DNA from: Calothrix sp. NIES-2100
Lineage (GTDB): Bacteria; Cyanobacteriota; Cyanobacteriia; Cyanobacteriales; Nostocaceae
Length of the DNA stretch: 64,000 bases
Direction of reading: 5' to 3'
NCBI GenBank assembly: GCA_002368195.1
Contig: AP018178.1
Location: 5,145,286-5,209,285, forward strand
The position numbers and the translations under genes are program-made. Shown here piece after piece: positions 4,119 to 14,089 of the stretch (the stretch's first letter is position 1; the number at the start of each line of letters is the position of its first letter). The notes under the pieces are model-generated. The model saw nothing but the letters and a program-made list of their open reading frames with translations, was not told where the DNA came from and made no database searches.

Positions 4119-4245
4119 TGATTGCTAATGTGTCATTTCTCATTACAAAGGATAGAGAAATTACAGCAGATTGTACAGATAATTGTCAGGGCAGTGCCCA
4201 TACGTGTCAACTTAATCATGGGACAGACCATTAAGCCGATAGCTT

Positions 4246-4913: not shown

Positions 4914-6098
4914 CTATCTGTCAACAGAACCCATAATCACGTCAATACTGCCGAGAATTACCACAATATCTGCCACCTTCATTCCGCGTAATAAATGAGG
5001 CAGAATTTGTAGGTTGTTGAAATCGGCGGCGCGAATCTTCCAGCGTGCGGGGAAGACGTTATCATCACCCACTAAATAAATGCCCAGTTCACCTTTACCG
5101 CTTTCGACACGGGCGTAAATTTCTCCTTTGGGAATCTTAAAAGAAGGAGAAACTTTTTTACCAATATACTGGTAATCAAAAGCATCCCATTCTGATTTTT
5201 TCCCAGCAGCTAAACGCTTCGCTTCTAGGTTTTCATAAGGGCCACCGGGAAGTCCTTTAATTGCTTGGCGAATAATTTTCACAGATTCGCGCATTTCCCG
5301 CATCCGCACTACGTAACGGGCAAAGCAATCACCAGCAGTTTCCCACTGCACATCCCAATCAAAGTCATCGTAGCATTCGTAGTGGTCTACTTTGCGCAAG
5401 TCCCACTTCACCCCAGAAGCGCGTAACATGGGGCCAGAAAGTCCCCAGTTAATTGCTTCTTCGCGGGTGATTGTGCCAATACCTTCAACCCGACGACGGA
5501 AAATGGGGTTATTGGTAACCAACTTTTCGTACTCGTCTATTTTAGGTAGCAAGTAATCGCAGAATTCTGAGCACTTATCTACCCAACCGTAAGGTAAATC
5601 AACCGCCACGCCACCAACGCGGAAGTAATTGTTATTTACCATCCGATAACCAGTAGCAGCTTCCCACAAATCATAAATCATCTCCCGTTCGCGGAACTGG
5701 TAGAAGAAGGGAGTTTGCGCGCCCACGTCAGCGAGGAAGGGCCCAAACCACAACAAGTGGTTGGCGATTCGGTTCAATTCCAGCATAATCACGCGGATGT
5801 AGCTGGCGCGTTTGGGTACAGCCACACCTGCCAATTTTTCTGGGGCGTTGACAGTGACGGCTTCATTGAACATCCCCGCTGCGTAGTCCCACCGACTCAC
5901 GTAGGGAACATACATAATCGTGGTGCGGTTTTCCGCGATTTTTTCCATTCCCCGGTGCAGGTAGCCAATTACTGGTTCACAATCAATAACATCCTCGCCA
6001 TCCAGGGTAACAATTAACCGCAGAACCCCGTGCATTGAGGGATGGTGCGGTCCCATATTCAGCACCATAGGTTCAGTGCGGGTTTCTATTCTGGCCAT
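4914..6098 (-). CDS. ndhH: NAD(P)H-quinone oxidoreductase (NDH-1) subunit H
   Basis: [28 protein letters not shown]... is the canonical NdhH/NuoD N-terminus; 394 aa. Confidence 0.95.
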
Positions 6099-6460
6099 AG
6101 ATTATAGTGTTCTCCCGTTCATGAAAATTTAGAATTGGATCGCGTAGATGCCAACCAGACCCAATTTATATTGTCTGCCACAATCAGACTCTTGAGAGTA
6201 ATGGGTTTAGGTTGGAAAGAAGATGGCAGCCGAGGGATTTTGGTTGATGTTTAATTTTGTTGCACTTCTTCAATTATTATATGGAATCCGCAATAAGTTA
6301 TTGACTGGACTCGGAAAATAGGATTATCTTCAAAATATCTGCTACTAAATGCCTTAATAGTGATTTAATATCGTTAAATTCCTCTTATATAGTGCATTTT
6401 AGCTATATATACCAAAATTAAGTTTAAAAACTGAGTATAAATCTTACCTAAAAAACTTTT

Positions 6461-7711
6461 GTGCGATTACGGATTTCTTGTGTAATAGGGGGTTTGTTTG
6501 GTGTCATTTTGTCAGTGTTTCTGCTGCTCTTACAGTCTCATTTTGTTGTAGCAGCCTCTGATACAGTAGTTTATGACAAAGCCCAGAAAGCACAATCAGG
6601 CTTTTTGGCGATACTGGAAACCCTCGTCAACATTGATTCAGCAACGGGCGATCAACAGGGGCTGACTCAGGTGGAAAACCTTGTGATTGAGCAGCTGAAA
6701 TCCGTAGATGCTGACGTTAAAACTATAGATGCAACGCCTAGCGCTGGACGGAACATCCTGGCAACAATTCAAGGTACTGGCAAACGCAAGATTCTGCTTC
6801 TTGCCCACACTGATACCGTATTCGACAAAGAAAAAGCAGCTCAACATCCTTTTAAAATTGTTGATGGCAAAGCCTACGGTCTAGGGGTGATGGATGACAA
6901 AGGCGGAATTCTCTTAGGTATCGAAGCACTGAAAATTTTGCGAGAACTGAATTTTCAGGAATTTGGCACGATTACCTTTTTAATTAATCCAGATGAAGAA
7001 AAAGGATCGTTGGGTTCACGGGAATTGATCAAAGAAACTGCGAAAAAACATGATATCGCGCTGGTGTTAGAATTTGGCTCCCCAGAAGATAAGGTAACCT
7101 CATGGCGCAAGGGAATTGGTTACTATGGACTTGAAGTCAAAGGTCGAGCAGCCCATGCGGGGGCTGAACCAGAAAAAGGCTGTAATGCTCTATTGGAGGC
7201 AGCTTTCCAAACTTTGCAACTGAGAAACCTTGGCGATCGCAACAAACAGACGACAGTTAATTTTACTGTTTTCCAGGCAGGCGATCGCAGAAATATAATT
7301 CCCGATTCTGCCAAGGTTCAGGCAGATGTGCGGGTACTCCAAGCCCAAGAGTACACTCGCCTCGAACGTGACTTTACGCGGTTATCACAAAACAAACTGT
7401 TGCCTTGCACTGAAATCAAGGTGATCTCAGAACGAGGTCGTCCACCGTTTCCACCCAATGCCAAAACCGATGCGTTAGTTAAAAAAGCTCAAGCCATTTA
7501 TCAAACAATTGGTCTCAAGCTGGGAGTTGAAGGCAGTGGCGGTGGTACTGATGGTAACTACGCTGCCTCCGTGGGCACATCCACACTTGATGCACTTGGG
7601 CCTGTAGGTGGGGGTGCGCATAGTCCAGATGAATATATCAATTTGGATCGGATTGCACCGCGAATTTACTTACTCACCAAGCTGTTAATGGATTTGGGAT
7701 CTGCAAACTAG
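6461..7711 (+). CDS. Peptidase M20 family (glutamate carboxypeptidase-like), secreted
   Basis: Signal peptide and M20 motifs (LLLAHTDTV, GVMDDKGG, NPDEEKGS, metal-binding H/D/E); 416 aa. Start codon uncertain (GTG at 6461). Confidence 0.8.
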   Translation: MRLRISCVIGGLFGVILSVFLLLLQSHFVVAASDTVVYDKAQKAQSGFLAILETLVNIDSATGDQQGLTQVENLVIEQLKSVDADVKTIDATPSAGRNILATIQGTGKRKILLLAHTDTVFDKEKAAQHPFKIVDGKAYGLGVMDDKGGILLGIEALKILRELNFQEFGTITFLINPDEEKGSLGSRELIKETAKKHDIALVLEFGSPEDKVTSWRKGIGYYGLEVKGRAAHAGAEPEKGCNALLEAAFQTLQLRNLGDRNKQTTVNFTVFQAGDRRNIIPDSAKVQADVRVLQAQEYTRLERDFTRLSQNKLLPCTEIKVISERGRPPFPPNAKTDALVKKAQAIYQTIGLKLGVEGSGGGTDGNYAASVGTSTLDALGPVGGGAHSPDEYINLDRIAPRIYLLTKLLMDLGSAN

Positions 7712-7740
7712 TCAATTGTCAATTGTCATAGTAATTTCTC

Positions 7741-7812
7741 CCTGTCCCCTCTGCCCCCCTGCCCCCCTGCTCCCACCCTCTCCCACACTCCCCCATCCCC
7801 CTCACCAAAATA
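7741..7812. repeat. C-rich STRR-like octamer repeat block (CCCCTG/CCCCTC units)
   Basis: ccctgtcccctctgcccccctgcccccctgctcccaccctctccc... read directly. Confidence 0.6.
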
Positions 7813-7825
7813 ATGGGTCTGAAGC

Positions 7826-7850
7826 CTCGCCCTTCTAGGGCGACTTTTTA
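7826..7850 (+). terminator. Intrinsic terminator hairpin (tcgccc-ttcta-gggcga) plus T-run after the M20 peptidase gene
   Basis: Stem-loop followed by TTTTTATT on the plus strand. Confidence 0.5.
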
Positions 7851-7975
7851 TTAATTTTTAACTTCCTAACTAATTCTCTGAGTACATCAGACTTTGTTCT
7901 TTTAGTTGCTTGGCAATAGTCTTCAAGATGTGCTAGCTCTTCCTCTGTTAATCGAAAAAATACGCTTTTATTCAT
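7835..7975 (-). CDS. Small ribbon-helix-helix (CopG/Arc-like) protein, 46 aa, not in the ORF track
   Basis: Manual translation gives MNKSVFFRLTEEELAHLEDYCQATKRTKSDVLRELVRKLKINKKSP. FRLTEEE...SDVLRELV is a classic RHH beta-strand plus two-helix signature. Divergent from tnpB. Confidence 0.45.
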   Translation of the reverse strand: MNKSVFFRLTEEELAHLEDYCQATKRTKSDVLRELVRKLKINKKSP

Positions 7976-8027
7976 TGTTTTGTATATCTTGATGATATAC
8001 AATCATCACAAACCAAGAGGAAAATTA

Positions 8028-9173
8028 GTGAAAGCAAGATACCAGTATCGCTTCTATCCAACACCACAACAGCAACAAAGCCTAGCTCAGTTGTTTGGAT
8101 GTGTACGTGTTGTATATAACGATGCTTTGGCTATCTGCAAGCAGTCCGAAAAACTTCCCAAGAACAGCGAATTACAAAAGCTTGTAATTACACAAGCCAA
8201 AAAGACTGATGAACGCTCATGGTTGTCTGATGTTTCAGTAACTCCATTGCAACAGTCAGTTGCCGATTTAGGCGTTGCCTACAAGAACTTTTTTGATTTT
8301 CTTAAGGGTAAGCGAAAAGGGAAAAAAGCAGGAACTCCGCGATTCAAAAAGAAGACAAGTAAGCAGGGAGCAAGGTTTACGCTCAACAGTTTTTCAATTA
8401 AAGGTACGTTCGTATATCTAGCCAAAATTGGTAACGTTAAGCCTATTTGGTCTAGACGTTTACCGTCATCCCCGTCAAGCGTAACAGTCATCAAAGACTG
8501 CGAAGACCGCTATTTTCTTAGCTTTGTTGTAGAAATAGAACCTATTCATATTGATGCCAAAAACCAAAGCATTGGTATTGATTTAGGAATTCAAACTTTT
8601 GCAGTTATGAGCAATGGGGACAAAGCAGCAAGTCCCGATTACTCAAAAAAAGACCGCAAAATCCGCAAATTACAACGCAAGCTAGCAAGGCAACAGAAAG
8701 GGTCTCAACGTCGTGAACGTACTCGCATAAGAATTGCCAACAGACACAATCAAATTGCGGATACCCGCAAAGATTTCTTGCACAAGCTATCAACCAAAGT
8801 AGTTAGTGAGAACCAAACTATTGTTTTGGAAGATTTGAATGTGTCGGGAATGGTTAAAAATCGCAAGTTGGCAAGGGCGATTAGCTTGCAGGGATGGCGA
8901 GAATTTCGGGTATTATGCGAGGCTAAATGTGAAAAATTTAGTCGAGATTTCAGAGTAATTAATAGATGGGAACCCACCAGCCAAACTTGTTCTTGTTGTG
9001 GGTATCGATGGGGCAAGATTGATTTATCTGTTCGTTCAGTGTTGTGCTTGAATTGCAACACTGAACACGACAGAGATGATAATGCGTCCCGAAATATAGA
9101 AATGGTCGGCATGGGGCATCGGCACGACCTTAAACGGACGGGGAGCGACCATAAGACTACGAAGAGTAGCTAG
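8028..9173 (+). CDS. tnpB: IS200/IS605-family TnpB (OrfB) RNA-guided nuclease-like transposase accessory protein
   Basis: KARYQYRFYPTPQQ N-terminus, RuvC-like core and C-terminal zinc finger CSCCGY...CLNCNTEHDRDDNASRNI. Likely GTG start at 8028 (track ORF begins at TTG 7980). Confidence 0.85.
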   Translation: MKARYQYRFYPTPQQQQSLAQLFGCVRVVYNDALAICKQSEKLPKNSELQKLVITQAKKTDERSWLSDVSVTPLQQSVADLGVAYKNFFDFLKGKRKGKKAGTPRFKKKTSKQGARFTLNSFSIKGTFVYLAKIGNVKPIWSRRLPSSPSSVTVIKDCEDRYFLSFVVEIEPIHIDAKNQSIGIDLGIQTFAVMSNGDKAASPDYSKKDRKIRKLQRKLARQQKGSQRRERTRIRIANRHNQIADTRKDFLHKLSTKVVSENQTIVLEDLNVSGMVKNRKLARAISLQGWREFRVLCEAKCEKFSRDFRVINRWEPTSQTCSCCGYRWGKIDLSVRSVLCLNCNTEHDRDDNASRNIEMVGMGHRHDLKRTGSDHKTTKSS

Positions 9174-9245
9174 TTGCTGGGAGCCGTCAAGAATCGCCGA
9201 CGTTCTACGTCGGTGAGTATGTCAATGCGGCGGTCTCGCGCAAGG
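9174..9245 (+). ncRNA. Putative omega-RNA (reRNA) / right-end region of the TnpB element
   Basis: Located immediately 3' of tnpB, where TnpB guide RNAs are encoded. Contains a palindromic stem CCGACGTTCTACGTCGG typical of IS605 right-end hairpins. Confidence 0.3.
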
Positions 9246-9788
9246 TGAGTCAGTTGTAGTAGAAGTATCAGGAAATACAGCTAAAGTATGATACTCCGGG
9301 CTGTCATCACCATATAAAACTCGGAATGTATACAATTTAGTTTTTTCTGACCCTTCGGTAATTACTGTTAATAATGTATTGTTAGTATAAGGTAAACCGG
9401 GAATTGGCAGCTTTTTAATCCGTCTGAGTTGCATGACGTTTGCTGAAGAATTTTGGCAATCTCCTGTATTACCTCCTTGACCGAACTGCATACACATCGG
9501 CCCGTCAAAATCTATGGTTACCTGTGACGGGTCATTTAACCAAACTTTTTTAATTTTTTCTCCCGCCGGAATAAAACTGAGGTTTGTACCCTGCTGATAC
9601 CAAACTTTAATAGTAGGTACTACTCCGCTTAAACCTTGAGCTTGACAGGAAAAAATCGATCGCAGAACAGCATTCTCAGCTACAGCGCGTCCTGCTAATA
9701 AGATTGCAGCCACAAAACCTAAAGAAGCCAGAGGTAGAAAATAAGAATTATTTAAGATATTTGCGCGAAAATTGCTGTTTTTCTTCAT
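9222..9788 (-). CDS. Secreted hypothetical protein (possible outer T4SS component, VirB9/VirB7-like by position)
   Basis: Real start at internal ATG (MKKNSNFRAN..., signal peptide LASLGFVAAILLAGRAVA). The upstream PCPPC part of the track ORF is translated STRR repeat. Confidence 0.45.
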   Translation of the reverse strand: MKKNSNFRANILNNSYFLPLASLGFVAAILLAGRAVAENAVLRSIFSCQAQGLSGVVPTIKVWYQQGTNLSFIPAGEKIKKVWLNDPSQVTIDFDGPMCMQFGQGGNTGDCQNSSANVMQLRRIKKLPIPGLPYTNNTLLTVITEGSEKTKLYTFRVLYGDDSPEYHTLAVFPDTSTTTDSPCARPPH

Positions 9789-9789
9789 G

Positions 9790-9930
9790 GCTGAACTGGG
9801 AAGGAGTGGGCAGGGGGGCAGGGGGCAGGAGGGACAAGGGGGACAAGGGAGACAAGGAGGACAAGGAGAACAAGGATGATAAATAAGAAATATCCAATGC
9901 CCAATGCCCAATGCCCAATGCCCATTAATC
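9790..9930. repeat. STRR block: (GGGACAAGG)n octamers followed by (ATGCCCA)4 heptamers
   Basis: Tandem short repeats read directly; generate spurious ORFs 9704..9886 and the N-terminus of 9222..9911. Confidence 0.8.
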
Positions 9931-9931
9931 C

Positions 9932-11512
9932 TTAAAATTCCATTGTCTGATTGATATAGATTTCAACTTCTGTACCGGCTGGTAAAAACCAAACGTTGGT
10001 TCGCTGCATCATGTCGGAGATTGCTTGTTGATTGCGTTGGGCAATTTGCGGGACTACGGTGTTCATCCCACCTTCTAAGGCTGCTGCGATCATGTTGCGT
10101 TCTGGGTTATTAGTGCTAACCACAGTACCGCCTGCATTAGTTGTGACAACTTGGGATTCAGTCCGATTCATTAACTCGGCGGCTTTACCTAAACCACCCA
10201 AAACAAACAGTCCTATATCCATACTGGCAATGGATGATCCACGATTAGGATATTGTCTTGCTACCAGCGGTTTACCTTGGGAACCGCGAATCATGATGGC
10301 ATTTGGCGGTAAGCTATTTTCAGATATTCCATTACTATCTTTAGCGATCGCTTTCACCACATTTAGCTGTAGTAACCCTTGTTCGGAAAGAGTACGAATT
10401 TCTGTTAATAACTCCGTACCCGCAGGTATAGCAACGTTTCCATCTACACCTTTTAAAGGTTCTTGTAACCGCACGACAAATGTATTTTTGGCGGTTTCCT
10501 CGCCATTATTAGCGGCGGAATTAGAGGTTTCGCCAAATACAGCTGTGGCTAGCACAGCTTTAGCGCTACTCCCGACTGCTAAGGATTTGGAACCCTGCTT
10601 TGTTTGTTTATTTGCAATCAGAGTTGAGTCTTCTGTTGTGCTTGCATTCTGAGTTCCTGGCTCTGGGGTTGATTCAGGCTGAGGGTTAGTTGCCTGTTGC
10701 TGTATGTTGGGATTATTGGCAGTTTCAGCATTATTGACATTTGCTGTCTGTTGATTTTGGCTTACCTGACCATAACTACCTAACTTAGCTAGATTTGTCC
10801 ACATTTGATAGGGATCTAGTTTAGGTTTGGGAGTTTCTTTGATTGCTGGGGGAATATCCGGTTTGACAGCTAAAAGCTGGGGTTGGGATGGTGGTAAAGG
10901 TTGAGAGGGTGGTAAAGGTAGAGAGGCGATCGCTTGTTGTGGAGGTTGCGGTACATTAACGATGCGTTCAACTGTGACTATTTTCGGTGCGTTGCTTTTT
11001 GGCGTTTGTTTTGCGGCTATTGACTGTGGTTGAATTTGTGTATTTCTCAGTTGTTGTTGTGCTAGTTTCACCGCCTCTGCTTGTTCGGTGAGTGCTAATT
11101 TAGTTTTCAACTTTTCGATTTCTAACTCTTGCGGTGGAGATTCATTTACTATCGGCGTTTTCACTGGGGAAGTAATATTCTTCCTTTTTGGTTTTTGATT
11201 GTTGCTACTCATCATCTGAGTTAAAAACCCACCAGCAAACAGAACCACAGCGAAAGTCGCTGTACCTACTAAGCCTAATTTAGCAAAGGGATTTCCGGCA
11301 AAAGATTGCTCCGTTTTTACTTCTGATGGTTGCGAAATTTCAGGCTCTGAGATACCTGATTCTTCTATTGTTTCATCGCGGTCAAAGGAGAATTCTCCAT
11401 TTTCTAACCCGACTAATTTTGCCATTCTTAATTCCCAATCTTGAGAATCAATTTCTTCTAGTTGGCAATTCTTACTTGCAGAAATTTTTGCTGAACTTGA
11501 ATAGGGAGTCAT
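9932..11512 (-). CDS. VirB10/TrbI-like type IV secretion protein
   Basis: N-terminal TM helix, long Pro/Gln-rich linker, C-terminal beta-rich domain with IPAGTEL...LQLNVVKAI...GT.V.IYINQT pattern typical of TrbI/VirB10. Confidence 0.65.
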   Translation of the reverse strand: MTPYSSSAKISASKNCQLEEIDSQDWELRMAKLVGLENGEFSFDRDETIEESGISEPEISQPSEVKTEQSFAGNPFAKLGLVGTATFAVVLFAGGFLTQMMSSNNQKPKRKNITSPVKTPIVNESPPQELEIEKLKTKLALTEQAEAVKLAQQQLRNTQIQPQSIAAKQTPKSNAPKIVTVERIVNVPQPPQQAIASLPLPPSQPLPPSQPQLLAVKPDIPPAIKETPKPKLDPYQMWTNLAKLGSYGQVSQNQQTANVNNAETANNPNIQQQATNPQPESTPEPGTQNASTTEDSTLIANKQTKQGSKSLAVGSSAKAVLATAVFGETSNSAANNGEETAKNTFVVRLQEPLKGVDGNVAIPAGTELLTEIRTLSEQGLLQLNVVKAIAKDSNGISENSLPPNAIMIRGSQGKPLVARQYPNRGSSIASMDIGLFVLGGLGKAAELMNRTESQVVTTNAGGTVVSTNNPERNMIAAALEGGMNTVVPQIAQRNQQAISDMMQRTNVWFLPAGTEVEIYINQTMEF

Positions 11513-11521
11513 AAGTACGTC

Positions 11522-12214
11522 TTAGGGTGAATTTTCCGAACAACTTTTATCTTTCATGTCACAAATCTTGTAGATTTGTAATCTAGCCGAACCTAGGCGG
11601 TAAGCAGCCTGTTGCAAAGGAATTGCAGACTGAGGTAAAGAAGTAACTTGTTCATCTGTAGCTTGGACATAAATTTGTTGATTAACGGGAATCGACTCGC
11701 CAAGTCTATCTGCACCCTGAAAAACTAATTGATGAGCAACCATTTCGACTTTCCACTTACCCTCAGCTATTTTTTCGGGTTGAGAAATTCTCTGGATCGC
11801 TAATAGCTGCTCATCTGATTGATTGTAGTTATTTAATTTTTTATTGGGATTTAAGTTATTAATTTTGGTTTGTAATTTGGGCTGAAAATCTTCAGTTACT
11901 AATTGAGAACTAATTTCCCAAACAGTATTTTGTGGTTGCTGCTGTGACCAAGTTAACATTAAAGTCATTGTTTCGCCCACAAATCGCCGAATTGTTTGTT
12001 GATCTCGTTCTAAATTTTCTTGTGGGTTGACTGTAATTGCCCGACCATCAGCCAATTGTACCAAACTTGGCAATGTTGTTTGCCGATTTAATCGCTGCAA
12101 AATCGACCAGTGAAACATCAATACCAACAAAGTTAACAGATGTACTCCCAATGTGCCAATGGCAAACAATGGTAAGATATTAGTCTTTTTATTTTCTGTT
12201 TTCAGTATTTGCAT
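11522..12214 (-). CDS. Bitopic membrane protein, VirB8-like candidate (paralog A)
   Basis: N-terminal TM; clear paralogy with 12218..13042 (FAIxTxG..LL, QLxDGxA, RDxxAIRxF, TMTL..WS, GKWxVxMVA, LxIYE). Confidence 0.4.
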   Translation of the reverse strand: MQILKTENKKTNILPLFAIGTLGVHLLTLLVLMFHWSILQRLNRQTTLPSLVQLADGRAITVNPQENLERDQQTIRRFVGETMTLMLTWSQQQPQNTVWEISSQLVTEDFQPKLQTKINNLNPNKKLNNYNQSDEQLLAIQRISQPEKIAEGKWKVEMVAHQLVFQGADRLGESIPVNQQIYVQATDEQVTSLPQSAIPLQQAAYRLGSARLQIYKICDMKDKSCSENSP

Positions 12215-12217
12215 TGT

Positions 12218-13042
12218 TTATCTAGTAAAATTGCCAGATTTTTGTTCGGTTTCACATTGAGTTGATTTTGCTCCTTCCAAATTATCATACTTATCAATTA
12301 AACATAAATTCCGCATCTCATAAATTTCTAATCTCTCAGCCCGCACCAAATAAATTGCTTTTTGTAAAACTGTTAGTTGTTCAGATTGGGGATAATCAAA
12401 GTAATCTACTGCTTGCACCAATATATCTTTATTAAAAGGAACAATTAACTTTTTGCCATCAGCTTTTTTAGTTTGAATCAAGTCAGCTACCATCCCCACT
12501 TGCCATTTACCTGGTGAAATTTCTTTCGGGGGATAAACCCGTTTAATTACTAATTGTCCTGAGATAATTTGTTGCGGATTATTGGCGAAAACTTCTGGTG
12601 GTGTCATCAGCGCAATTTGACCTAAAAACCCTTTGCGGAAATCTTCAGCAAAGGCAAAACTAGCTATCCAACTACTAGTAGTCACTTTTTGACTACCACC
12701 ATTGGGGGTTTTAATTAGTATTCCCAAATCTGGTTTAGGCTTACCAAATTCTTCCAGGGATTGTGGCGGTAAAGTTCCTGACCAGTCAAAGATTAATGTC
12801 ATCGTTTTACTAATGAATTGGCGAATTGCTTCGCTATCTCTAACTAAATCATCACCAGAATCAACAGCTTTACCATCAACCATCTGCACAAAATTCGGCT
12901 GTTTTCTCACACTCAGTTGGCGAATATTCAAGCCTTGGGCGATTAAAAACAGCAACAGTAATAGCTGCAATCCAAAAGTAGCGATCGCAAAAATTGTTAA
13001 AATACTGGCAGTACGTTGTTTTTTCTCTAATAACCGTACCAT
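12218..13042 (-). CDS. Bitopic membrane protein, VirB8-like candidate (paralog B)
   Basis: Same architecture and conserved blocks as 11522..12214; tandem duplication. Confidence 0.4.
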   Translation of the reverse strand: MVRLLEKKQRTASILTIFAIATFGLQLLLLLFLIAQGLNIRQLSVRKQPNFVQMVDGKAVDSGDDLVRDSEAIRQFISKTMTLIFDWSGTLPPQSLEEFGKPKPDLGILIKTPNGGSQKVTTSSWIASFAFAEDFRKGFLGQIALMTPPEVFANNPQQIISGQLVIKRVYPPKEISPGKWQVGMVADLIQTKKADGKKLIVPFNKDILVQAVDYFDYPQSEQLTVLQKAIYLVRAERLEIYEMRNLCLIDKYDNLEGAKSTQCETEQKSGNFTR

Positions 13043-14089
13043 TTATACCCTCTCTTTCACCCAAGAAGCTGTATTCCCAATCGCATTAAAAACTGCAAAT
13101 CCTCCCGCCGCTGCTACTAATAAAGATAAAATCGGTGCTAAAATTCCTAAGAAAATCATGAACCACATTAAATCAGGGTCAGCATTGGGATCTTGGGCTG
13201 GGCCATTCACAATCACAGCAGCAGTTAACACAGCAATAATATTGAATGAAATTTTGGCAATCCCTAAAGATATAAACCCAGTCAGCCATGCAAAAATCGG
13301 TTTACCTGCTACTGGTAGTAAGGAACCACCCACCGCTAAAGGCCCTAAAGCTGCTATCAGCAACATCGTCGCCTCGATTAAATTTTGAAAAGCATATTGT
13401 AAGGAAACTAAAAAGTTTTTTATACTAGTTTGTACCGTAGAACCTAACAATGCATTAAAAGAACCTTCCGAGATATATCCTGTGCCATAGCTAATCTGAT
13501 TTACCTTATTTTCTAAGCGTTCAATCCAGACTTTATTACCATATAAATTTTTATATTCTTGCCAGAGATTATTAATTTTTTCTGATGCTTTAGTAAAGCA
13601 TTGAGATTGTTGTTCACCATTCAAAGATTGACAAGGACGTAGTAAAGCACCAGCCACCTCTTCCGCCACACTCATATTTAGCGCCTGCTGATAAACCGAG
13701 TTAGCATCTGCTGTGGCGATTACTTGCTGATTTACCGAATTGATAAAGTTGCGTACCCCTAAAGTCAAACTAGAAAGAATACTGCCATCTCCAGAATTAT
13801 TTAACAAAATCACCACCACAAACGGCCATATCATAGATGATATGGGACGAGAAAATTCACCTTCTAGGACATCTTTCAACCATTGCATGAGGAAAAATAA
13901 TAAAGTTCCCACCGCAAAAAATATACCTAAATTTGTTAAAGCGCCATAAATATTTTCACTGGGATTTTTTTGTAATAAATCTAGCCATTGATTCTCCCAG
14001 CTTTCGGCAATACTTTGGGCAGTTGTCGCGCCATTGCCGATAAATTCTCTAATGCCTGTATCCGCAGGAACTTGTAAAATATACTGCAT
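13043..14089 (-). CDS. Polytopic membrane protein, VirB6/TrbL-like candidate
   Basis: 348 aa with at least 5 predicted TM helices and a hydrophilic N-terminal region; positioned in the T4SS-like cluster. Confidence 0.45.
   Translation of the reverse strand: MQYILQVPADTGIREFIGNGATTAQSIAESWENQWLDLLQKNPSENIYGALTNLGIFFAVGTLLFFLMQWLKDVLEGEFSRPISSMIWPFVVVILLNNSGDGSILSSLTLGVRNFINSVNQQVIATADANSVYQQALNMSVAEEVAGALLRPCQSLNGEQQSQCFTKASEKINNLWQEYKNLYGNKVWIERLENKVNQISYGTGYISEGSFNALLGSTVQTSIKNFLVSLQYAFQNLIEATMLLIAALGPLAVGGSLLPVAGKPIFAWLTGFISLGIAKISFNIIAVLTAAVIVNGPAQDPNADPDLMWFMIFLGILAPILSLLVAAAGGFAVFNAIGNTASWVKERV

Follow-up and report, generated by a model that had tools for sequence, protein, structure and literature searches.

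A small protein of demonstrated or proposed regulatory function is known to accompany the RNA-guided nuclease TnpB, or an effector derived from it, in several systems, and here we describe a candidate for such a pair in a cyanobacterium, within a 1,420-bp element of the IS200/IS605 family on the chromosome of Calothrix sp. NIES-2100. The element occupies positions 7806–9225 of a 64,000-nt stretch of that chromosome (contig AP018178.1, positions 5,145,286–5,209,285, forward strand; hereafter the window, in whose numbering all coordinates are given), and was delimited by comparing about 90 related loci and an empty site. The closest counterparts are clostridial. In Petroclostridium xylanilyticum and Clostridium botulinum, ribbon-helix-helix (RHH) proteins of the Arc type bind to the divergent promoter in the intergenic region and act as repressors of the tnpB promoter, according to chromatin immunoprecipitation sequencing, reporter assays and mutagenesis by Moon, Zedaveinyte, Wiegand and Sternberg (bioRxiv 10.64898/2026.09.24.754181; Arc clade seed WP_003367503.1). 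The same preprint reports elements that contain only arc and tnpB, and some Arc proteins of at most 50 aa that annotation had missed. Arc-containing IS605 elements were first noted by Zedaveinyte et al. (10.1101/2023.11.20.567912), and a link between Arc-like proteins and both TnpB and Cas12k had also been recognized before the preprint.

The Calothrix element resembles the clostridial Arc elements in that a small RHH gene lies inside the element boundaries, divergent from tnpB, with inverted motifs over the presumed promoter. The two differ in host, since the Arc papers mention no cyanobacterium, and in gene content, because arc and tnpA often occur together, on one strand, in the clostridial elements, whereas in the present family a single slot holds either the RHH gene or tnpA and never both. 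The sequence of the candidate operator also differs; the likeness is one of layout and predicted fold, and repression at the Calothrix locus is a prediction. In cyanobacterial CRISPR-associated transposons (CASTs) of type V-K, genes for a MerR-type repressor, CvkR, or for the repressors Arc_1 or Arc_2 lie divergently upstream of cas12k (Ziemann et al. 2023, PMC9938897); the cvkR and cas12k mRNAs are leaderless, and several unrelated types of CAST regulator have been acquired independently (PMC9938897). These systems share with ours the phylum, a small repressor gene divergent from a TnpB-derived effector, and a short intergenic region, but their effector is the nuclease-dead Cas12k of a Tn7-like element, and Arc_1 and Arc_2 have no significant similarity to the RHH protein described here (hhalign probabilities of 5.8% and 0.6%, which leave a relationship unsupported). 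Archaeal RHH/MazE-TnpB pairs (Altae-Tran et al. 2023, PMC10691335) likewise link a small RHH-type protein to a TnpB predicted to be active, but there the small gene is co-oriented and upstream in a predicted operon, the RuvC-III aspartate is changed to histidine, and the pairs are immobile and were proposed to be toxin-antitoxin systems (PMC10691335).

With respect to the insertion sequences themselves, the element is like IS608 and ISDra2 in its subterminal hairpins, in insertion 3' of a tetra- or pentanucleotide without duplication, and in an omega-RNA that overlaps the 3' end of tnpB; unlike them, the window copy is without tnpA, has TCAC as its target-adjacent motif (TAM; the family majority is TGAC), and carries an extra regulator gene. 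It also resembles the tnpB-only IS1341 group, where standard pipelines would file it, in having no transposase gene and in needing TnpA in trans for movement. Unlike that group it has two genes, and its close relatives are autonomous IS605-type elements, making it a cassette-replacement derivative and not a bare tnpB. The kind of system is therefore already described, if only recently, and the arrangement is less novel than the preliminary description of the window had implied, since RHH-plus-TnpB pairs are in the literature; the element adds a cyanobacterial case.

A conserved RHH gene and a palindrome lie upstream of tnpB

We propose, with a probability of roughly 0.75, that this is a non-autonomous IS605 element whose RHH protein represses both tnpB and its own gene. 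The features on which the proposal depends are:

7835–7975, minus strand: gene for a 46-aa ribbon-helix-helix (Arc/CopG-like) protein, MNKSVFFRLTEEELAHLEDYCQATKRTKSDVLRELVRKLKINKKSP, with its stop codon inside the left-end hairpin
7980–8002: candidate operator, a perfect palindrome TTGTATATC-TTGAT-GATATACAA (N5 spacer), in the 52-bp gap between the divergent start codons
8028–9173, plus strand: tnpB, for a 381-aa RNA-guided endonuclease with its probable start at GTG 8028, in a frame open from 7980

The 46-aa frame had been recognized earlier, from the window alone, as an RHH gene, and comparison with other genomes confirms it as a genuine one. There are 38 homologues, 63–98% identical, all from cyanobacteria or metagenomes and many of them annotated as CopG-family, and they range over Nostocales, Oscillatoriales, Leptolyngbya-like taxa and Cyanobacterium stanieri. 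The start, the length and 15 residues are invariant, including K3, FFRL at 6–9 (the predicted strand) and RxKSDVLR at 26–33 (the start of helix 2). Median pairwise rates are 0.10 for nonsynonymous (dN) and 1.35 for synonymous substitutions (dS), giving a dN/dS of 0.068, which is indicative of purifying selection. An AlphaFold2 model built from the homologue alignment has an extended N-terminus followed by helices at 11–24 and 28–41 (mean predicted local distance difference test score, 79), and the top ~38 Foldseek matches in the PDB are all RHH proteins (ParG, CopA, CopG, Arc and RHH antitoxins). Although each of these lines of support for the fold is weak, they agree and are consistent with a predicted RHH protein.

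A frame this short could be a chance or decaying one, left without function after loss of tnpA. Its Pfam score is barely above the threshold, its last codons overlap conserved left-end DNA and would be preserved regardless of function, and two loci (L011 and L038) have damaged copies. We nonetheless consider this explanation very improbable, given the median dN/dS of 0.07 with near-saturated dS, the constancy of start, length and invariant residues from Nostocales to C. stanieri, the predicted RHH fold, and the lack of detectable TnpA similarity beyond the shared left-end codons. Judged by its pattern of conservation, the RHH gene is real, functional and under constraint. A separate possibility, that the protein is an internally deleted TnpA in which an N-terminal strand and helix were joined to a C-terminal helix, was rejected: BLASTP returned only trivial matches of 5–7 residues (E 0.3–3.3), and at the DNA level nothing resembles the tnpA-type siblings except the final ~8 codons, where the gene overlaps the left end.

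The palindrome between the two genes is unique in the window, where 0.01 matches are expected by chance. Its arms are kept in all 13 of the aligned RHH-bearing loci, with one or two substitutions in a few (L011, L029 and L003), and the 5-nt spacer is free to vary. The tnpA-type siblings are without it and have instead two (C/T)AGACCAAT repeats and a TATAAT box. Two further situations separate the palindrome from its tnpB. In a Phormidesmis sp. (L088, 1341–2632), an RHH homologue (69% identity over 39 residues) is divergent from a TnpB only 29% identical to that of the window, and the core TATATC-N5-GATATA is kept at a locus with a different left end. In Desertifilum (L086, and L087, 2473–2680), tnpB is absent from an orphan remnant in which the left end, the complete palindrome and an intact 46-aa RHH gene persist. 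The palindrome thus follows the RHH gene and not tnpB, as is expected of a repressor and its operator, and it is likely, from this co-distribution, to be the RHH operator. The Desertifilum remnant suggests that the RHH cassette can outlive the nuclease. In another locus (L010, 2771–3727) a duplication of ~196 bp repeats the palindrome and the 5' end of tnpB.

Putative -10-like boxes overlap the half-sites of the palindrome, with TACAAT (7998–8003) directed toward tnpB and TATACA (minus strand) 5 nt before the RHH ATG; both are weak assignments. Because the palindrome ends only 4 nt from the RHH ATG, the RHH mRNA may be leaderless. The preliminary description had offered two roles for the RHH protein, regulation of tnpB or an orphan antitoxin-like function. 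With the co-travelling palindrome, the former becomes the most likely role, as a prediction from sequence; the latter is disfavoured by the divergent, non-operonic arrangement, by a length of 46 aa that provides no toxin-binding tail, and by the fact that the gene travels with its own palindrome.

The antitoxin-like function can also be put more specifically, with the RHH protein acting on TnpB itself, or on the TnpB-omega-RNA complex, to block cleavage, which would make of the two genes a module akin to a toxin-antitoxin pair. RHH proteins are common type II antitoxins, this one has weak NCBIfam matches to a RelB-like antitoxin and to aCcr1, and both a toxin-antitoxin role for the archaeal RHH/MazE-TnpB pair (PMC10691335) and an Arc-TnpB-omega-RNA interaction have been proposed. 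Such a module is improbable here. The genes are divergent and not co-transcribed, the RHH protein ends right after helix 2, and TnpB has a canonical RuvC-III motif, DRDDNA, and not the rearranged D-to-H site of the archaeal clade. Moreover, the palindrome stays with the RHH gene in the absence of tnpB (L086) and beside a TnpB of only 29% identity (L088), and close TnpB relatives, at 86% identity, do without an RHH gene.

TnpB is apparently intact and is not accompanied by a transposase

The tnpB start is likely GTG 8028, because homologues begin at MKARYQYRF and an AAGAGGA ribosome-binding site lies at 8015–8021. The product has the Pfam domains HTH_OrfB_IS605, OrfB_IS605 and Cas12f1-like_TNB (a zinc ribbon), scores 304 bits against the NCBIfam model guided_TnpB (cut-off 100), and aligns over its full length with the ISDra2 TnpB structures 8bf8, 8exa and 8h1j (E ~1e-57). 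The RuvC D/E/D residues are present in IDLG, LEDLN and DRDDNA, and the zinc-finger CxxC pairs are CSCC and CLNC. Compared with 57 relatives, it differs at 4 of the 191 columns that are at least 93% conserved, none of them catalytic. The protein is apparently intact, in keeping with the earlier view of a full-length TnpB with an unbroken zinc finger.

The same description had noted that no tnpA is adjacent, and this holds for the entire 64-kb window, where a search for tnpA, for further copies and for remnants of either end found none of them; one 17-aa tblastn match at ~27.3 kb has no left-end motif. As the element has no Y1 (HUH) tnpA, the window copy is a non-autonomous derivative.

A TnpB-based scan of one genome per species yielded 80 related loci, nearly all of them cyanobacterial. 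In most relatives a slot of 430–470 bp separates the left end from tnpB and contains a divergent gene for a Y1 transposase of 132 aa (Y1_Tnp, 132 bits). At least 12 further loci of the scan resemble the window in that this slot holds the 46-aa RHH gene, so that the pairing of RHH with TnpB recurs in at least 13 loci. Hence, of the label TnpB-only IS605-family element that had been given to this locus, the family assignment stands, on the hairpins and the mode of insertion, while TnpB-only does not, since an RHH gene lies inside the left end, in the tnpA slot. By its gene layout the element is better described as a two-gene, non-autonomous derivative of an IS605-type element.

The element ends appear to be kept for a Y1 transposase

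Comparison of related loci and of the empty site places the termini as follows:

7802–7805, plus strand: target and TAM TCAC, in flanking DNA directly 5' of the left end; insertion point, from the empty-site comparison, between 7805 and 7806
7806–7850, plus strand: left end, beginning CAAAATAATGGG, with guide box GAAG at 7821–7824; conserved in 50 loci
7827–7843, plus strand: left-end hairpin TCGCCCT-TCT-AGGGCGA, followed by a T-run
9191–9225, plus strand: right end, with a GAAT box (9191–9194), a hairpin and the terminal ...GTATGTCAA; cleavage tetranucleotide TCAA at 9222–9225
9195–9215, plus strand: right-end hairpin CGCCGACG-TTCTA-CGTCGGTG, with compensatory stem changes across loci

On the right side, DNA similarity to the window ends at 9225 or 9226 in ~60 related loci, and the terminus reads ...GAGTATGTCAA at 9225. 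All 62 right ends that were retrieved read ...CACCGnnnn-loop-nnnnCGGTGAGTATGTCAA and then pass into unrelated sequence, with deviations in two loci (TTTCAA in L040, and a TATATG insertion in L020); the palindromic hairpin that had been remarked 3' of tnpB belongs to this right end. On the left, similarity among RHH-type loci begins at ~7798–7807, and a conserved block, (flank)-T[G/C/T]A[C/T] followed by C[A/G]AAA...GGGATACAAGCCCCGTCC-TTCTA-GGACGGCTTTTT, is present in 50 loci. The stem of the left-end hairpin shows compensatory changes (CGTCC/GGACG, CGCCC/GGGCG, CGTGC/GCACG and CGTCG/CGACG). Subterminal hairpins are found at both ends and terminal inverted repeats at neither, as is usual for IS200/IS605 elements. 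The hairpin and T-run at 7827–7853 (plus strand) score as an intrinsic terminator, and the T-run is conserved in all left ends; such a terminator could stop read-through into the element from the upstream M20 peptidase gene.

An empty site is available in Tolypothrix sp. FACHB-123 (L085), where the junction in the orthologous gene reads CCGCCGCAGTAAGGG. That orthologue ends ...CCGCCGCAGTAAGGGAAGG, and the flanks of the window element, when joined, give ...CCGCCGCA followed by GTGAGGGGGATGG (CCGCCGCA followed by GTGAGGG). The comparison reveals a clean insertion 3' of TCAC that duplicated no target sequence and fell on the stop codon of a conserved gene, and it fixes the ends at 7806 and 9225. 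The interval first assigned to the element, 7835–9245, had included the correct features with incorrect ends: the left end continues for 29 nt past the stop codon of the RHH gene, which puts the start of the element at 7806 instead of 7835, and 9226–9245 is flanking DNA that supplies the guide. Calothrix NIES-2098 (L084) was ruled out as a clean empty site, as it is also without the M20 peptidase gene between the locus and ndhH.

TAM-like tetranucleotides lie 5' of the left end in ~50 loci, and the TAM co-varies across loci with the four bases 5' of the left-end hairpin:

TAM TGAC with left-end box CAAG: 29 loci
TAM TTAT with left-end box AAAA: 13 loci
TAM TCAC with left-end box GAAG: 3 loci, the window included
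TAM TTAC with left-end box AAAG: 2 loci

We take this pairing to be the IS608-type rule, under which a guide box 5' of each hairpin is matched to the cleavage site (AAAG with TTAC in IS608 itself); the right-end boxes, GAAT...TCAA, are identical to those of IS608. Co-variation of this type implies that the two ends are being kept recognizable to a Y1 transposase. It further suggests, by comparison among loci, one insertion sequence family with several target specificities, whose changes the TAM preference of TnpB would have to track.

These data bear on whether the TnpB-RHH pair might instead be immobilized and domesticated, with a host function such as RNA-guided regulation or defence. The RHH-type copies are seen only once per genome, there is no tnpA in the window, the RHH gene and tnpB are both constrained, and exapted TnpB lineages are known. 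We nevertheless think a host function improbable, since each species has a different insertion site and a different guide, an orthologous empty site exists, and features of use only to TnpA, namely both end hairpins and the pairing of TAM and box, are conserved and co-vary. In addition, the catalytic residues are intact, while inactivation is the rule among known exapted TnpBs, and the guide matches only the insertion site of the element itself.

Many related copies lie directly after arrays of TAM-containing heptamers, for example of the TGACCAA type (left flanks of L009, L013, L070 and L073), and such arrays may serve as landing pads. Short tandem repeats of 7–10 nt (GTCAATT, CCCTGCCC, AGGGGGACA and CCAATGC) also flank the window element together with its neighbouring gene, at 7711–7795 and 9808–9924.

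A structured omega-RNA is predicted at the 3' end of tnpB

The last 240 nt of 49 elements were aligned and helices derived with RNAalifold. The corresponding features of the window element are:

9104–9225 (approximate start), plus strand: putative omega-RNA scaffold, which overlaps both the 3' end of tnpB and the right end
9104–9129: omega-RNA helix 1
9137–9141 with 9184–9188: omega-RNA helix 2
9145–9150 with 9172–9177: omega-RNA helix 3
9157–9160 with 9166–9169: omega-RNA helix 4
9194–9216: omega-RNA helix 5, the right-end hairpin
9226–9241, plus strand: guide segment TGCGGCGGTCTCGCGC, in flanking DNA, its 16-nt length assumed by analogy with ISDra2

In this alignment the 3' end of tnpB has nucleotide conservation beyond coding need. 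Across the 32 pairs, 97.1% of cells are standard pairs, and compensatory changes on both sides occur in 21. None of 500 shuffles reached the observed values, and when partners were slid by 1–3 columns at most 8 compensatory pairs and at most 44% pairing remained. In helices 1 and 3 G-U pairs are common, which argues for a structure formed by RNA and not by DNA. The putative scaffold is thus strongly supported by covariation, and the suggestion that an omega-RNA is encoded where tnpB meets the right end is upheld. Single-sequence folding of the region is not significant on its own (z = -1.5). The covariance-model search that had been recommended was run with Rfam 15 on 7000–10500 (E<=1) and returned no relevant family, only a chance microRNA match, a blank that probably reflects missing models and not an absent RNA. 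One locus (L029, ~4119–4173) has a 55-nt insertion just upstream of helix 1.

The sequence after 9225 differs in every locus, and in the empty site the guide lies directly 3' of the TAM.

A model for control of the element

We envisage that RHH dimers bind both half-sites of TTGTATATC-N5-GATATACAA and that binding would occlude the two divergent -10-like boxes, so that tnpB, the omega-RNA derived from its transcript, and the RHH gene would all be repressed. Expression of the nuclease would thereby be kept low in an element unable to transpose alone. Movement would need a Y1 TnpA provided in trans, from a sibling that is autonomous and shares the left-end specificity, and after excision TnpB and its omega-RNA would cut the vacated TCAC+TGCGGCGG... 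site, with the copy restored by homologous recombination, as in other IS605 elements.

Several observations weigh against this model. The RHH protein passes the Pfam RHH_1 threshold narrowly (21.6 bits; gathering score 20.5), the E-values of its Foldseek matches are non-significant at 0.2 or above (as is expected with only 46 residues), and a PDB sequence search with the protein gave spurious helical matches only, none significant. At the promoters, a scan with the sigma-70 consensus called none in the intergenic region, and the assigned -35 box, TTGTTT, is itself a weak assignment with 3 of 6 matches. With regard to mobility, the RHH-type element was never present in more than one copy per genome among the loci examined; among the other cargo variants of this family several copies per genome do occur, as in Nostocales cyanobacterium HT-58-2 with four. 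Finally, the right end departs from the consensus in ways peculiar to the window copy, with CGCC in place of CACC (which keeps a G-U pair) and CTGGGAG in place of CTGTGAG.

Other small genes also occupy the tnpA position

TnpBs that are 86% identical to that of the window have in their slot either tnpA or nothing, and no RHH gene. Among 58 intact loci tnpA and the RHH gene never occur together, and on a neighbour-joining tree of the TnpBs (n=58) the cargo types are interleaved. Other copies have in the slot a 57–61-aa open reading frame (ORF), a 48-aa RHH/NikA-like ORF, or almost nothing. All occupants end ...K(K/E)(P/S)(S/P)*, because their last codons overlap the left-end hairpin. Three types of small-protein cassette, each with its own palindromic motif over a -10-like box, can be listed:

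Cassette 1: 46-aa RHH protein with TATATC-N5-GATATA
Cassette 2: 48-aa RHH/NikA-like protein with AGTATACT
Cassette 3: 57–61-aa protein, fold unassigned, with GGTATACT

The 48-aa ORF (MKTEKIFLRV...) is present in L024, in L028 (2613–2795, Baaleninema simplex PCC 7105) and in L022; its AGTATACT palindrome precedes a TATAAT, and C-rich short repeats lie between the ORF and tnpB. The 57–61-aa ORF (MPFQKKHKLGFTSD...) has no Pfam or NCBIfam match and has GGTATACT as its own motif. It is found in L052, L053, L054, L056 (~2774–2959) and L035, all from Nostocales cyanobacterium HT-58-2, and also in L014, L026, L051 and L075. The HT-58-2 genome has four near-identical copies with this ORF at different sites, from which it follows that this cargo variant was recently mobile, and it also has a tnpA-bearing copy.

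One tentative interpretation, which we put forward as a possibility somewhat on the doubtful side, is that the tnpA position is an exchangeable slot in which at least three unrelated small-protein cassettes take turns with tnpA on tnpB and omega-RNA backbones that are closely related, never alongside it, and move between distantly related TnpB lineages, as portable repressor and operator modules that repeatedly silence elements. If true, such modules repeatedly turn autonomous elements into silenced, transposase-less guide-RNA nucleases, and they may be the evolutionary origin of the divergent repressor-cas12k layout of the cyanobacterial type V-K CASTs.

The insertion leaves the neighbouring host gene essentially intact

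One host gene meets the right end:

9222–9788, minus strand: neighbouring host gene, conserved hypothetical, 188 aa; adjoins a trbI-like gene and is 100% identical to NIES2100_41640

The insertion split its last sense codon and changed CAG (Q) to CAT (H), where orthologues end ...PCVRPPQ*. The terminal TCAA of the right end, read on the other strand (9222–9227), supplies a new TGA stop, so that the gene is essentially intact. A conserved gene cluster lies beside the insertion at 9932–14089 (minus strand), and at the orthologous loci the 526-aa member of this cluster has a Pfam TrbI match, which suggests a putative conjugation or type IV secretion-like operon in a chromosomal context. In NIES-2098 (L084 4567–6205 compared with window 4914–7711), ndhH stands directly after the 188-aa gene, and the M20/M28 peptidase gene (window 6461–7711) is absent; as far as these two loci indicate, gene content at the host locus varies apart from the transposon.

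Significance

The element is a cleanly delimited natural example, mapped for its TAM, its two ends, its guide, the helices of its omega-RNA and a candidate operator, in which control by a micro-repressor is predicted, in a phylum outside the experimental work on Arc. It also illustrates how readily functional genes as short as 46 codons escape a cut-off on ORF length. If the RHH protein and its operator work as proposed, they would constitute a compact, portable switch for TnpB expression. Less expected are the mutual exclusion of tnpA and several small-protein cassettes and the apparent movement of an RHH-plus-palindrome cassette between TnpB lineages. The family as a whole appears to show how an autonomous IS605 element may become a silenced, non-autonomous one by swapping its transposase for a regulator cassette.

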